Shown here: positions 2,949 to 8,404 of the stretch, one piece after another
Layout: every line of letters starts with the position of its first letter
Numbering within the stretch: the first letter of the stretch is position 1
Source: Escherichia coli
Lineage (GTDB): Bacteria > Pseudomonadota > Gammaproteobacteria > Enterobacterales > Enterobacteriaceae
Direction: 5' to 3' (one strand)
DNA length: 64,000 nucleotides
Assembly (NCBI GenBank): GCA_025544715.1
Contig: GCA_025544715.1_4109.1
Made by a program: the position numbers and the translations under genes
The notes under the pieces: generated by a model
What the model was told of the DNA's origin: nothing
Database searches by the model: none
What the model saw: only the letters and a program-made list of their open reading frames with translations

Positions 2949-2959
2949 TTTTCATATAG

Positions 2960-2985
2960 CCAGCACATTGTTGCTGGTTTTTTTT
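2960..2985 (+). terminator. Rho-independent terminator
   Basis: Hairpin CCAGCA-cattgt-TGCTGG followed by T8. Confidence 0.7.
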
Positions 2986-3159
2986 GGTTTTAAACTACAG
3001 AATTATTTGAATTGAATTATGAAAGGATTAATTTTAATATTATTGGATTCATCTAACTCATTTCATTCGTTAGCTGAAGAATATTCGTTACTACGTAACT
3101 CATATTCATTTAATTAAATTAATTATAAAGAACTTTAAAAGATTTAATACTTGACGGGA

Positions 3160-3620
3160 TTTGTTGAGGACATTTTCATCCCCCCGCAGGGGAATGAAGA
3201 CAATAAAAAAGAGACAATGAAGTCTCTATTTCTTGACGCTGATGGTTTCAGCATTTATTGTATTGCGAATTTCTTAAAAATATATTAAGAACGAAAGCGG
3301 GTTGCTCTGTTTCTCTCTATCGCAGTCATGTGCAACGGTCGTCAGTCTTAATCATCCTGACACTCACCTGAAAGTCTATACAATCAAACTTCAGGCTGTT
3401 TATTAAAATCACTTAATAAACTCCCTTAGCAAATCTGGTAAGGTGCGATCCTTATATGTCTATCGAGGAACTCTCTGTATGCTTATCGGAGTTCTTTATT
3501 GAGCCGCATTGCCGTGAGGGGTTCAAACTATGCCCACATCTAACGGGTTTCTTTTGCTCATCGCACTGTTGAACTGCTCATCTGCCATCTACATTTTCGA
3601 TAGGATCAGGTTCTAATTTA
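3160..3620. other. Structured ORF-free segment; candidate non-coding RNA or regulatory region
   Basis: No ORF of 60 aa or more between 2949 and 3784; locally higher GC than flanks; several dyad symmetries (e.g. AGAGAC-AATGAA-GTCTCT at 3209-3226; AGGAACTC...GAGTTCTT around 3468-3502). No tRNA cloverleaf recognised. Confidence 0.25.
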
Positions 3621-3784
3621 TATGCATTTCTGCATTCAACAGGATTGTCATTACTACAACAAACATTATAGCACAAACTTTAAAGTTGTCTCACTATTTT
3701 TATAAAAATATTCATTAAGTACTTAAAATATTGCAAATAACTAATCCATAAATATTTTGATAACAAATAGTTTGGTGAGGAATT

Positions 3785-4276
3785 ATGAAAAAAAGATTAA
3801 AAGATAGTAAGGATGCTGCAAACTATCGAAACGAATTGCTAAAGAAACAAAATGGAATAGATCCTATAATTAACGAACCAATAACTAAACCAGTACTGGA
3901 TCACTACCACTATGGTAACCAACATTGTAGACAAGTTCTTCAAAATGAAGTCAATGCTTGGGAAGGAAAGGTGCAAAACAGCTTCAATCGATATATGAAG
4001 CACTTAACTGATAAACCATTATATGAGGTACTCAGAAATCTTGCTGATTACCTAGAGCGTAATAACAGCATTCCTGACGATGAACAAGTTATACATCACA
4101 CTGCACTAACTGTTGATGTTAATAAGTTTAAAAGGCTCCCAGCAACACAGCAAAACGCGATTCTGGAAGGGTTAGGAGTTGTCCCTGGTAGCAACACTAC
4201 TGCTCGTGTAAAGCAAGCTAGAAAGCTGATTAAAGACGGTAAATTAAATATGGTTGATATAAAAAAAGGGAGCTAA
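3785..4276 (+). CDS. HNH / endonuclease VII-like domain protein (zinc-binding cysteines not conserved)
   Basis: 163 aa ORF with GAGGAA RBS; segment LDHYHYGNQHCRQVLQNEVNAWEG aligns by eye to the endonuclease VII core (DHDH...RGLLCxxCNxxEG) with Cys positions replaced. Confidence 0.45.
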   Translation: MKKRLKDSKDAANYRNELLKKQNGIDPIINEPITKPVLDHYHYGNQHCRQVLQNEVNAWEGKVQNSFNRYMKHLTDKPLYEVLRNLADYLERNNSIPDDEQVIHHTALTVDVNKFKRLPATQQNAILEGLGVVPGSNTTARVKQARKLIKDGKLNMVDIKKGS

Positions 4277-4292
4277 GGCTCCCTTTATCTTT
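4268..4292. terminator. Bidirectional Rho-independent terminator between convergent genes
   Basis: GGGAGC-taag-GCTCCC with A7 upstream and TTTATCTTT downstream; the plus-gene stop codon lies in the loop. Confidence 0.75.
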
Positions 4293-4294
4293 AA

Positions 4295-6442
4295 TTAGAA
4301 AACATCATCAAGAGTTGCATATTCAACAGTACTGAAACCGTCTTCTTTAACAACTTTGAGGATTTTTTCAGTCTTAGAAAGTAACTCTTCTCTATGGGAA
4401 ATAGCATAAACGTTCTTACCACGTACAGCAGCCATATCTTGGAAGATAGACCACACACGTAGAACACCACTTGAGTCAAGACCTTGGTCAATCATCTCAT
4501 CAATGATAAGAATATTAATACTTTGGTATAATGACTCATATGTATCACGGAAAGCACAAGATAATGCGATGTTTACCCTTGTACGCTCACCTCTACTAAG
4601 CTGTTTATAGTCAAAGTACTGCCCACTCTTCTCAATTTCAACACTCAAATCATTCAAAAACACAACATTATGCTCAGAACCGCACATATCGATATAGTAC
4701 TGAAGTCGTGTATTCAAATATGAGATATTTTGCTCAATAATACGTTTACGGACATAAGAATCCTTGTTTAAAAGTAATTTAACCAAGAAATCTTGGTGAT
4801 TTGACATTTTATCAAGATTATTATAGTCGCTATAATCGATTGGTACTAAAGAATCAGTCTTCAGAGTATTAATTTGGCTAATAAATGTGTTAGTAGTCTT
4901 CAATTCACGATCTAATTGCTGTGATAATGAATTTACAGTCATTTCTAACTCTTTAACTTCATATTTGTTTAATGTATCTGGAACTTCCATTAGTTCATAT
5001 GAGTTAAGTTCATCATATGATGACATAAGTTCATTTGCATAGATGTTTATTGGTTCTTCTTCACTCTTTCTGACCAATTCTTGAAGCTTATGTTCATGCA
5101 TTTGTGCTTCCGAAAGTGTATTATAATATGTCACAGGTTTAGGTGGCATATCAAAAATCTCAATACTATCAATTTCTTGAAGTAATGTTTCAATTTCAGA
5201 AGAAGAACTATCAATTTTAGCTTGAAGATCATTAATAGTACTTTGGATTTTGTCTTTAATTGAAGAAGTATGTTCGTTATGTTCCAATTCAGACATACAA
5301 AGTGGACATTTGCTGTTTTCAACTGTTGATAATTTGTCAATTTCAGCATTAATTGAACATTCATATCCTTTTAAAGCTATTTTTAGTGAGTTTAGTTTTT
5401 GTTCTTTGAAACGTTTTTGGTTATTATTCTCTTTTAGAATACCCTCTAACTGTTTCCATATCTCCAACTCATTATGATTTTCCAATTCTGCACTAATATC
5501 AATAGTTTTTAGCTTATCAATGCTTAGATTTAATGCTCTTTTAGATCTTTCAAGTTCACGGTCATATGCATCAAATTTTAAAGCCAACTCTTGTACACGG
5601 CGTTCAATTTCACCACGCTTTGCGTTATGAATAAGAGCTTTCTCTTTTATGTCAGCAGCTTCATAGAGGTCATTAAAGTCTAAAGTTTTATATATATTCA
5701 ACTCTTCATTTAACTTAGATACTCTATTATTTTTATCAATTTCAAACTGGTTTGCCTGTTCTTGTAGTGCCTCAATACTTTTTTGAATACGTTCATTACT
5801 TGCAGCTACAGTTTCATTTTTGAACTTTTCTTGTTCGGCTAAACGTTTAGTATCCTTATACATCTCCTTTAGCATTTCAGCTTTTTCCGTCAACTGTGTT
5901 ATTCCAAGAAGTTCTTCTATCATATCACGTTGTTTTTGTGTGGATAAAGCTAAGAAAGGTTCAACGTTAGCATTCAGTACTACAATATGTTCAAATAATA
6001 ATTGAGATATACCAAGAATTTCATTCAAATCTTCTTGTGTGTCTTTCTTTTCTCCCCTTGATTCATCTTCAATTTTATTATCTTTCCCTAAAGTAACAAA
6101 ATTGAAATACGTGGGACTTCTCCCACGTTCAACCAAATATTGTACACCATCTTTTTCAAACTCTACAACTACTTCACAATTTTTTCCATTAGTTTTATTG
6201 ACTAGGTTAGGAATTTTAATATCGTTACCAATACTTTTACCAAATAATCCAAAAACTAATCCTTGAATAATAGCACTTTTCCCTACACCATTTCGACGTC
6301 CGGTACTGTCACCACCTTCAATAACTGCATCATTATTTTGACCCAGTACTAATGAAATGTCGGAACCATTCAAGTCAATTGATTGTGGTGCATTACCAAA
6401 TGAAAAGAAGTTCCTCATAGATATACGTGTAATGTTTAGCAT
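4295..6442 (-). CDS. Rad50/SbcC-like recombination ATPase (T4 gp46-like)
   Basis: 715 aa; Walker A RNGVGKSA, long coiled-coil middle with CPLC zinc-hook, signature LSRGE, Walker B LIIDE. Confidence 0.85.
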   Translation of the reverse strand: MLNITRISMRNFFSFGNAPQSIDLNGSDISLVLGQNNDAVIEGGDSTGRRNGVGKSAIIQGLVFGLFGKSIGNDIKIPNLVNKTNGKNCEVVVEFEKDGVQYLVERGRSPTYFNFVTLGKDNKIEDESRGEKKDTQEDLNEILGISQLLFEHIVVLNANVEPFLALSTQKQRDMIEELLGITQLTEKAEMLKEMYKDTKRLAEQEKFKNETVAASNERIQKSIEALQEQANQFEIDKNNRVSKLNEELNIYKTLDFNDLYEAADIKEKALIHNAKRGEIERRVQELALKFDAYDRELERSKRALNLSIDKLKTIDISAELENHNELEIWKQLEGILKENNNQKRFKEQKLNSLKIALKGYECSINAEIDKLSTVENSKCPLCMSELEHNEHTSSIKDKIQSTINDLQAKIDSSSSEIETLLQEIDSIEIFDMPPKPVTYYNTLSEAQMHEHKLQELVRKSEEEPINIYANELMSSYDELNSYELMEVPDTLNKYEVKELEMTVNSLSQQLDRELKTTNTFISQINTLKTDSLVPIDYSDYNNLDKMSNHQDFLVKLLLNKDSYVRKRIIEQNISYLNTRLQYYIDMCGSEHNVVFLNDLSVEIEKSGQYFDYKQLSRGERTRVNIALSCAFRDTYESLYQSINILIIDEMIDQGLDSSGVLRVWSIFQDMAAVRGKNVYAISHREELLSKTEKILKVVKEDGFSTVEYATLDDVF

Positions 6443-6450
6443 ATAGTCCC

Positions 6451-7500
6451 TTATAACGATCTGTAAATTTGGATTAGAAGATTTTTATCAAACATTGGTG
6501 AATCAATTTCCATAATTTGCTGCAAAACTATCTCATCAACTGATTCAGTACTTTCAAAACTAACACCATCTTCGATTAATTCTGAAATACTTTGCTTGCT
6601 TGTCACAACATTAAACTCTCTAATGTTATAAAGTTTAGTAAATGTATCACGAATAAAACTAATCTCATCAGTTGTTATTGATATATCAACTTGAACTTTT
6701 GATATTGTGTTATCTTGTAGATAATAGCTTGGATCAGTCAACAATTCAGAAAGTGTGAATGTTCTATATTTTGGTGCATTATCCCATGACTTGAAAATAG
6801 GTTCTTTGCCATGTTCAAGAATCATCACACCTCTTGCATCATCCCATGTATCGGAAAAATTATGTGGAAAACAATTACCAGTATAAACTACACGAGTTCC
6901 TTTTGAAGTTGTTTTTGACTGTCGTTTATGAAAATGTCCACTAAAAACATACTCACATCCACCAAAAGAACCTTCTGTTTCTTTTCCATGATCAGGCATT
7001 TCTACCATCTTGTTAAGTAAGTAACCTGGTAACTCTAAGTGACCAAAAACATACTTACTTTTTAGTTGAGGTAACAACTTATATTCATCTTCAATCATAA
7101 ATGGAATGAAAGTACAATCATCAAAGGTTGTAATTTCATTAATGAATTCTATATTTTCATAAACTTGAGCCATATTGATACTTGTTATATCACGTTTGTT
7201 TTTATGATACATATCATGGTTGCCTACTAAAAAATATACTTTTTCAAAATTATCATTTAATAATTGAAGAATTTGTAAACCATAGTTTAGTGTTTGAATA
7301 TTGATATTACTTCTATTATGAAAATAATCTCCCATAAAAACACAAACTTTGATATTATTTTTTTTAGCTACATCAATCATGAATTTAATGAAGTTTAAAC
7401 AATCTTCATTGTGTTGCTTGCTGTTATTCTTTAAACCTAAGTGAATATCAGTGAATGTAATTGCTTTATCAAACAGAGCCATCTTCATTTTTCCTTTCAA
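6451..7500 (-). CDS. Mre11/SbcD-like nuclease (T4 gp47-like)
   Basis: 349 aa; phosphoesterase motifs DIHLG, GDYFH, GNHD, GHLE, GHFH; directly upstream of the Rad50-like gene. Confidence 0.85.
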   Translation of the reverse strand: MKGKMKMALFDKAITFTDIHLGLKNNSKQHNEDCLNFIKFMIDVAKKNNIKVCVFMGDYFHNRSNINIQTLNYGLQILQLLNDNFEKVYFLVGNHDMYHKNKRDITSINMAQVYENIEFINEITTFDDCTFIPFMIEDEYKLLPQLKSKYVFGHLELPGYLLNKMVEMPDHGKETEGSFGGCEYVFSGHFHKRQSKTTSKGTRVVYTGNCFPHNFSDTWDDARGVMILEHGKEPIFKSWDNAPKYRTFTLSELLTDPSYYLQDNTISKVQVDISITTDEISFIRDTFTKLYNIREFNVVTSKQSISELIEDGVSFESTESVDEIVLQQIMEIDSPMFDKNLLIQIYRSL

Positions 7501-8308
7501 TCATGTTCAATTCAATTTCAATTTGACGTGTATGTGATGGCGTAAAGCCATGCATTTCAAGTAAATCATCACGTATATTTCGAACATTTTTCTCACTATT
7601 CAATATAGAACGAAAACTATTGTTTACGAATGATGTATAGTAAGAGAAAGGATTTAGCTGAACTGCTGGTTTATCTTTTTTATAAAGAATGCTCTCTTTA
7701 AAGAGAAGTGCGTTTTTAACTAATTGTATTCTTGCATCACCCATCATTTCATCTAAGTATGTATAGTTTCTGTAATTAGATTTATGAGAGATTTCCTCAG
7801 CAAGTTTAATGAACATCTTCCCTAGTTCATTTGTAATTTTACCATGAACAGTACTGAATTCACCAGTTTCAAGATCTCCTTTCCAATGAGAACGACATAC
7901 TTCATAGAGAATTCCTTCATTATCTACAATGTAATGCTTGAATGGTTCAAAGTTAACTCTAGTGTCGGGTGGAATATGTTCATCAGTGATAACACGAATA
8001 ACAACTTCATCGATTGGAACATCAGTGATAACTAAATTATTTTCATCTGCATATTCTTTAGCTTTTTTAGCACTCATACTTTCCTTTTCACGAATACTAT
8101 CAAGCATTTCATTGTTTAGTCGTTTGATTCGTGCTGCTTTGGCTTTTTCAAGTAACTCAGCAGTAATTTCTGACTCATGAAAAACAATATAATCATACAT
8201 ACTATATGATTTGTCTAATAACCAGCAGTATGAAATCTTACTTTTTTGTATTTCACGAAGTAAATCAGCATTATTGAGATACTTTTTACGCTTTGGCCTA
8301 TTTGTCAT
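7469..8308 (-). CDS. Late-transcription sigma factor, T4 gp55-like (with insertions)
   Basis: 279 aa; N-terminal KYLNNADLLREI and C-terminal NPFSYYTSFVNNSFRSILNSEKN resemble T4 gp55 segments as recalled from memory; supported by exact TATAAATA motifs upstream of structural genes. Overlaps the Mre11-like gene by about 30 nt. Confidence 0.55.
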   Translation of the reverse strand: MTNRPKRKKYLNNADLLREIQKSKISYCWLLDKSYSMYDYIVFHESEITAELLEKAKAARIKRLNNEMLDSIREKESMSAKKAKEYADENNLVITDVPIDEVVIRVITDEHIPPDTRVNFEPFKHYIVDNEGILYEVCRSHWKGDLETGEFSTVHGKITNELGKMFIKLAEEISHKSNYRNYTYLDEMMGDARIQLVKNALLFKESILYKKDKPAVQLNPFSYYTSFVNNSFRSILNSEKNVRNIRDDLLEMHGFTPSHTRQIEIELNMIERKNEDGSV

Positions 8309-8396
8309 TGTATTTTACTCTCCATGTTTAAATCCAATAGGTACAATCCTTGTACCATCAATGTTATTATAGCACCAAAAAGCATTTTGTCCCACG

Positions 8397-8404
8397 TATA
8401 AATA
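8397..8404 (+). promoter_or_regulatory. T4-type late promoter motif TATAAATA
   Basis: Exact TATAAATA 36 nt upstream of ATG 8440. Confidence 0.55.

Follow-up and report, generated by a model that had tools for sequence, protein, structure and literature searches.

The locus raises the question of whether an open reading frame that resembles the gene for phage endonuclease VII, but in which the cysteine pairs of the zinc-binding site are replaced, encodes a functional enzyme. A preliminary description of the sequence left the choice between a divergent junction-resolving nuclease, a homing nuclease, and an inactivated remnant. The window, a 64,000-nucleotide stretch of DNA deposited as Escherichia coli (GenBank assembly GCA_025544715.1), belongs to an E. 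coli jumbo phage of the 121Q/PBECO4/G17 type. Its region 3000–8400 is 99.5% identical to the Escherichia phages vB_EcoM_G17, Sharanji, 121Q, and PBECO4, which are RaK2-like jumbo myoviruses of the genus Asteriusvirus with genomes of ~350 kb. The open reading frame at positions 3785–4276 of the plus strand starts with ATG, encodes 163 amino acids, and ends with the stop codon TAA. It corresponds to gene 594 of phage 121Q, annotated as "DNA endonuclease VII", and its product is 99–100% identical to database entries. Public records of the RaK2-like phage group already list the gene as endonuclease VII.

The product of the open reading frame is homologous over its full length to T4 endonuclease VII (gp49), which is the textbook junction resolvase of phages and a widely used reagent for the cleavage of mismatched and branched DNA. 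The PHROG 423 "endonuclease VII" profile matches the complete protein with E = 1.9e-35, and a family profile built from 70 orthologues (A2) matches T4 endonuclease VII from the PDB (1e7d/1en7) with E = 1.8e-6 across T4 residues 33–140. Aligned by hhalign with nine canonical four-cysteine endonuclease VII proteins (A3), the family profile reaches 99.95% and E = 1.1e-38 over 147 columns. The T4 reference sequence in the alignments was confirmed to be identical to 1e7d_A. Chance cannot account for so strong a resemblance to endonuclease VII, and the objection that it might represent a chance motif fails. Searches with the single sequence are weak or empty, as Pfam Endonuclease_7 gives E = 0.034 and 14.5 bits, below the gathering cut-off of 23.6, and phmmer finds no match in the PDB; therefore, profiles were needed to detect the homology. 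Pfam Endonuclease_7 recognizes 35 of the 70 family members at E ≤ 0.01, with 4.2e-6 as the best value, and misses half of the family genes because their zinc-binding cysteines have been lost. The classical HNH profile PF01844 does not match the protein even at E ≤ 10, and PHROG 36860 "HNH endonuclease" matches it weakly (8.3e-5). The only link of the protein to the wider His-Me finger superfamily is through endonuclease VII; of the two affiliations considered beforehand, the one to Endonuclease_7 is confirmed by hhalign and PHROG 423, whereas that to HNH is not.

The AlphaFold2 model of the protein, computed without metals by a method that may return the family fold irrespective of how stable the protein really is, has a pLDDT of 94.6, with residue blocks 21–30 and 51–60 at 98. 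It contains β-strands 36–41 and 47–53 and an α-helix formed by residues 54–70. Foldseek aligns the model end to end with T4 endonuclease VII (1e7l_A, E = 5e-7, TM score 0.66, 157 columns) and finds no other significant neighbor in the PDB. The protein is thus predicted to have a ββα-metal finger and a helical C-terminal domain, as in 1EN7. T4 endonuclease VII (PDB 1EN7, 1E7D, 1E7L, 2QNC, and 2QNF; PF02945) is 157 residues long and shares with the window protein an N-terminal helix, a β-hairpin carrying the DHxH motif, a finger helix with N and E, the helical C-terminal domain, and identical catalytic D, H, H, R, N, and E residues. However, the two sequences are only ~22–27% identical, and the window protein lacks a five-residue insertion in the hairpin loop (ELNGPKAG in T4, YGNQH here). 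The endonuclease VII genes of RaK2-like phages (121Q gene 594, RaK2 gp449, CBB_248, and those of PBECO4 and G17) are orthologues with 60–100% identity and the same synteny, with no difference of substance. The paper describing CBB already treats the protein as a T4-like resolvase; it is silent, as are the annotations, on the missing zinc site. Structurally, the window protein represents a modest variation on a well-known enzyme.

Catalytic residues and the replaced zinc site

The segment DHYHYGN…RQVLQNEVNAWEG, in which the resemblance was noticed by eye, comprises residues 39–61 of the window protein. It begins with the DHxH catalytic motif D39-H40-Y41-H42 (positions 3899–3910, plus strand), whose invariant D, H, and H align with T4 D40, H41, and H43. 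The part from R49 to G61 (RQVLQNEVNAWEG, positions 3929–3967, plus strand) constitutes the start of the His-Me finger helix, modeled as helix 54–70, and contains R49, N57, and E60, which align with R54, the metal-binding N62, and E65 of T4. The catalytic residues of the T4 enzyme include D40 and N62, which bind the metal, as well as H41, H43, and R54 (PMC6083498). Residues D39, H40, H42, R49, N57, E60, and G61 do not vary among 121 orthologues with at least 58% identity, and the D-H-x-H…N constellation is retained in 146 of 148 more distant representatives. Pairwise dN/dS values of the gene against those of 121Q, WPEC3, ECO103, and Munch are 0.03–0.12. Because the catalytic residues are invariant and the dN/dS ratios are this low, selection acts strongly on the protein as an enzyme, and the gene is no remnant.

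Two unusual relatives were observed. The gene of ECO103 4-12-1 (L010) is a mosaic in which residues 100–163 equal those of the window protein and residues 1–99 differ at 22 positions, many of the differences being common to Salmonella phage Munch, which points to a recombination breakpoint within the gene. A 446-residue homologue of endonuclease VII from the profile search (P0179) carries an insertion of ~290 residues exactly inside the DHxH motif (…PVLDH/CFDEE…VAVVGN/CHQNGH…, with slashes at its borders). Because it begins with cysteine and ends with asparagine followed by cysteine, the insertion resembles an intein placed in the active site.

The claim that the zinc-binding cysteine pairs are replaced holds: the zinc ligands C23, C26, C58, and C61 of T4 gp49, which has one zinc per monomer, align with D26, I29, Q53, and V56, and the sole cysteine of the window protein, C48, is aligned with T4 V53. 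The codons of the former first zinc knuckle, D26-P27-I28-I29 (positions 3860–3871, plus strand), correspond to C23-L-I-C26 of T4. D26 and P27 are invariant in the 121 sequences of the jumbo-phage family, and none of these orthologues contains a CxxC…CxxC pattern. A profile search of 1.84 billion cluster representatives yielded 594 matches at E ≤ 0.001, and the zinc columns were counted in the best 148 usable matches, which represent clusters at 50% identity. Within these best 148 of 594, none of the four cysteines is present in 75 proteins, only the first in 56, only the last in six, two or three in five, and all four in six. At most one of the four cysteines was counted in 131 of the 148 nearest representatives. 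Of the 148, 79 have D and 67 have C at position 26; T or L predominates at position 29, and V, A, S, or T is found at position 56. Position 53, which directly precedes the finger helix, is mostly H, D, S, or Q, with Q, D, or E in the jumbo-phage family.

A neighbor-joining tree rooted on T4, which is crude, places the cysteine states in the order CCCC, CCxC, CxxC, Cxxx, and Dxxx, and a stepwise loss of cysteines would fit this order. The zinc-less state is an ancient and widespread trait of a lineage and is not peculiar to the window gene. Judged from the sequences, the lineage with the Asp-Pro "zincless knuckle" dominates the sequence neighborhood and includes RaK2-like jumbo phages, rV5-like phages, and several groups of podophages. 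The endonuclease VII proteins of rV5-like phages (ORF97) and of the Autographiviridae Ralstonia phage BMB50 and Vibrio phage Vp670 belong to this lineage as well, being zinc-less or nearly so; their knuckle reads D/C/S-P-I-T/L, and the catalytic asparagine is not preceded by a CxxC motif. Their full-length identity to the window protein is 31–35% (A1 alignment), with differing C-terminal regions, and the local identity according to tblastn is 33–50% over 56–82% of the query. By contrast, gp21 of K1E and the protein of Campylobacter phage F379 keep all four cysteines.

The loss of the zinc site departs from what has been described for these enzymes. The CX2-4C/DHDH/CX2C pattern of the endonuclease VII motif family is presented as highly conserved (PMC6083498), and the T4 mutants C23S and C61S have lost both activity and DNA binding according to Giraud-Panis 1995, as cited there. 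Therefore, activity without the zinc site is not to be assumed. A review of His-Me finger nucleases lists endonuclease VII among the possessors of a zinc knuckle, which many other members of the superfamily lack (PMC5714182); in those unrelated families, packing of the protein alone replaces the zinc motif and catalysis is kept. No description of a zinc-less endonuclease VII was found in a literature search of incomplete coverage; the loss of the site is real, lineage-wide, and, as far as found, undescribed.

The fold of the window protein is presumably held without zinc, because an Asp-Pro turn and capping residues replace the Cys4 site. The invariant turn D26-P27 would fill the first knuckle, and polar, mostly helix-capping residues would occupy the position of T4 C58 at the N-terminus of the finger helix, as judged from sequence and secondary structure. 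Residues that typically cap helices include D, S, N, and T. In NEIL1 of the Fpg/Nei family, which is unrelated in fold and family, the "zincless finger" similarly consists of protein packing in place of a zinc motif, with catalysis kept. A genome-wide avoidance of zinc proteins was considered and rejected, given the Rad50-like neighbor and a DksA-like C4 zinc finger in 121Q.

Genomic setting and expression signals

In phage 121Q, the endonuclease VII gene is located between a gp26-like baseplate hub gene and the convergent genes gp46, gp47, and gp55. The window contains the corresponding Rad50-like gp46 gene at 4295–6442 and the Mre11-like gp47 gene at 6451–7500, both on the minus strand, and a gp55-like late sigma factor gene at 7469–8308, assigned from the 121Q annotation. 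The convergence with the Rad50/Mre11 pair pointed out in the preliminary description is borne out, as the Rad50-like gene ends at position 4295 of the minus strand. Pfam searches confirmed the Rad50 zinc hook, the metallophosphoesterase domain (Metallophos) of the Mre11-like protein, and the T4 baseplate domain. Residues 364–410 of the Rad50-like protein keep the CxxC zinc hook KCPLCMSEL (Rad50_zn_hook, E = 4.9e-5).

The order portal, structural gene, gp26 hub, endonuclease VII, gp46, gp47, and gp55 is kept in 121Q, RaK2, and CBB, and the endonuclease VII gene is found at the same position in the genera Asteriusvirus, Alcyoneusvirus (RaK2), and Mimasvirus (CBB), with one copy per genome. RaK2 has an additional gene for a hypothetical protein between the endonuclease VII gene and gp46 (L007, 5492–6523), and CBB has one annotated as "structural protein" (L008, 5479–6213), whereas there is none in the window. 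Therefore, the direct adjacency of the endonuclease VII and Rad50-like genes is not conserved. As in T4, the gene is accompanied by recombination and packaging genes of the T4 type, and 121Q also encodes UvsX, UvsY, UvsW, Dda, RNase H, and a T4-type terminase; however, the window gene adjoins gp46/47 and does not occupy the position of T4 gene 49. No resolvase of another type was found in the ~170 kb of the 348-kb 121Q annotation that were examined, and the assumption that the whole genome has none draws in part on Iyer et al. 2021.

The start codon of the endonuclease VII gene is preceded at a distance of 3 nt by a Shine-Dalgarno-like sequence (GGTGAGGA, positions 3774–3781, plus strand), as read from the sequence, and at a distance of 30 nt by a candidate T4-type late promoter (CATAAATA, positions 3747–3754, plus strand). 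The 7-mer ATAAATA is depleted approximately threefold in the window, with 13 copies seen against 36 ± 5.8 expected, and 12 of the 13 precede the ATG of a long open reading frame on the same strand by 6–58 nt. The copies start at positions 1862, 3748, 8398, 14420, 14437, 15396, 18959, 37046, and 49953 of the plus strand and 1805, 37011, 61562, and 62087 of the minus strand. The one upstream of the endonuclease VII gene is kept in WPEC3. In its distribution, ATAAATA behaves like a T4-type late promoter that would be read by the gp55-like sigma factor, and this statistic of motif positions indicates that endonuclease VII is probably expressed late. Downstream, a bidirectional terminator-like hairpin (AAAGGGAGC-TAAG-GCTCCCTTT, positions 4265–4286) is common to the endonuclease VII and Rad50-like genes, and the stop codon of the former lies inside its loop. 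The annotations of G17 and Munch show a terminator at the corresponding site.

Proposed role and competing explanations

Very probably, the gene encodes the phage endonuclease VII orthologous to T4 gp49, which would function independently of zinc, late in infection, and debranch DNA before packaging. A function like that of T4 gp49 is the most likely because of the homology and the conserved context of recombination genes. By analogy with T4, the protein would be a domain-swapped, homodimeric His-Me finger nuclease that recognizes and cuts Holliday junctions, Y-branches, and heteroduplex loops, with catalysis at a metal site formed by D39 and N57 and assisted by H40, H42, R49, and E60. Its likely job, suggested by homology and context, would be to debranch the network produced by recombination-dependent replication and so enable headful packaging of the 350-kb genome. 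According to Iyer et al. 2021, a T4 endonuclease VII-like protein serves as the Holliday junction resolvase in a subset of jumbo phages, and its distribution is nearly complementary to that of RuvC. The phage biology is ordinary in this respect, since such a resolvase is expected for a T4-like recombination and packaging system.

The divergent junction-resolving nuclease proposed in the preliminary description is thus supported by homology, predicted fold, invariant residues, purifying selection, and synteny, and the other explanations have to account for the same observations. A free-standing homing endonuclease of the endonuclease VII-motif ("DHHRN") type, similar to the cyanophage nuclease F-CphI and spreading its own gene, would share the catalytic motif family with the window protein, and further HNH endonucleases are annotated in 121Q. 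However, the gene is single-copy, fixed near gp46/gp47 across three genera, and, along with the phage core, subject to strong purifying selection. Moreover, the protein matches T4 endonuclease VII over its full length, including the C-terminal domain, and has the motif in an N-terminal position as in T4, whereas the motif of F-CphI is C-terminal, behind an extra N-terminal region (PMC6083498). F-CphI, other "DHHRN" nucleases, and Hpy99I have the D-H-H-R-N constellation in common with the window protein but differ from it in the CX2-4C and CX2C zinc motifs flanking DHDH (PMC6083498), in domain architecture, and in their sequence-specific functions. Homing is extremely unlikely. It is also very improbable that the protein is a dead or decayed remnant surviving as a DNA-binding or scaffolding protein. 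The zinc site essential in T4 is gone and the window sequence falls below the Pfam threshold, as would be expected of a remnant; however, the catalytic residues are invariant in the 121 orthologues and present in nearly all of the 148 distant representatives, the dN/dS ratios are low, the predicted fold is confident, and the ancient, widespread zinc-less state is at odds with ongoing decay. The gene is regarded as neither a homing nuclease nor a remnant, because it is an annotated endonuclease VII in its phage group and its neighborhood is conserved across genera.

Two further explanations accept an active nuclease. The former zinc site might still hold a metal through new ligands, such as D26 together with Q, D, or H at position 53; the wider lineage has no residue other than D or C at position 26 and for the most part H, D, S, Q, or E at position 53, and such residues can ligate metals. 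In the window protein, however, Ile occupies position 29 and Val position 56, two ligands are insufficient for a structural zinc site, and there is no correlated His or Cys elsewhere, with C48 and V37 varying independently of position 26. A residual metal site is therefore quite unlikely, because D26 and Q53 are the only residues that could ligate. Alternatively, the role of the nuclease may have shifted to the processing of mismatches or nicks, the degradation of host DNA, or a partnership with Rad50/Mre11. Such a shift would be consistent with the convergent gp46/gp47 next to the gene and with the broad substrate range of T4 endonuclease VII itself, but the intervening genes of RaK2 and CBB, the lack of another type of resolvase in the examined part of 121Q, and the treatment of the protein as the phage Holliday junction resolvase by Iyer et al. 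make it highly improbable.

For the presumably zinc-independent gp49 orthologue, a separate matter is whether the loss of the cysteines was a selected functional shift as opposed to tolerated decay, and selection for a shift is considered unlikely. If it did occur, the enzyme would be freed from zinc supply or thiol oxidation during infection, and its stability, regulation, or substrate range may differ from those of T4 gp49. The Cys4 zinc site is counted in the family signature, and T4 endonuclease VII cannot do without it; however, a large lineage has none or one of the cysteines. Having an active site under strong selection, this lineage provides a ready-made set of proteins for probing the purpose of the zinc knuckle, and resolvases that depend on neither zinc nor redox conditions may be obtained from it for use in the laboratory.

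Structured RNA-like element upstream of the gene

The 836 base pairs upstream of the endonuclease VII gene (positions 2949–3784) contain no open reading frame longer than 45 amino acids, and the equivalent region is unannotated in 121Q, PBECO4, and G17. Covariation and conservation identify in it a structured RNA-like element of ~450–500 nt, located at ~3140–3690 and probably encoded on the minus strand (~3660 to 3203). Sequences similar to ~3134–3628 recur, according to blastn, at four to five places per genome of RaK2-like phages, with 67–79% identity between genera, and the phages carrying them infect Escherichia, Salmonella, Klebsiella, Erwinia, Serratia, Yersinia, Cronobacter, Pectobacterium, and Xanthomonas. 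In IMG/VR, 21 full-length copies were found by a pattern scan. The genome of 121Q contains four copies, at ~90.3, 192.8, 247.5, and 326.6 kb, all in the same orientation and each in its own intergenic gap of 600–840 bp, while the window contains no second copy and no tRNA genes. A gap of almost 2 kb without annotated genes follows an array of tiny open reading frames at 135,195–137,160 of 121Q (L014, 35195–37160); nhmmer and blastn detected no copy of the element in L014, this gap included.

RNAalifold predicts ~80–107 base pairs for the element on either strand, and the 58 pairs common to the predictions for both strands are 95.4% paired. Changes on both sides of a pair occur in 33 of the 58 shared pairs as against 3–8 in slid controls, and none of 500 shuffles reaches 33. 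Regarding the strand, wobble pairs in 24 sequences favor the minus strand by 27 to 6, whereas in eight sequences the counts of G-U and A-C were nine each and made no distinction; the alifold energy of the 24 sequences is lower on the minus strand (−54.3 versus −49.6 kcal/mol). The minus strand of the element also contains an extended −10 promoter TGcTATAAT at 3673–3665 and a canonical terminator with a T6 run at 3227–3210, the stem of which covaries and the T-run of which is kept in seven of eight copies.

A comparison with Rfam 15 gave nothing meaningful at the gathering score or at E ≤ 10. The distantly related phage PA5oct expresses four non-coding RNAs of 236–619 nt, and nhmmer found no similarity of the element to its ncRNA001/002 region. 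Judged by its sequence and predicted pairing, the element looks like a member of an undescribed family of structured jumbo-phage RNAs ~450–500 nt long. As guesses, its copies may be origin or primer RNAs, in view of the four that are scattered in one orientation over a T4-like replicon; alternatively, they may have a regulatory or anti-defense function. The element is probably more novel than the zinc-less endonuclease VII encoded next to it.
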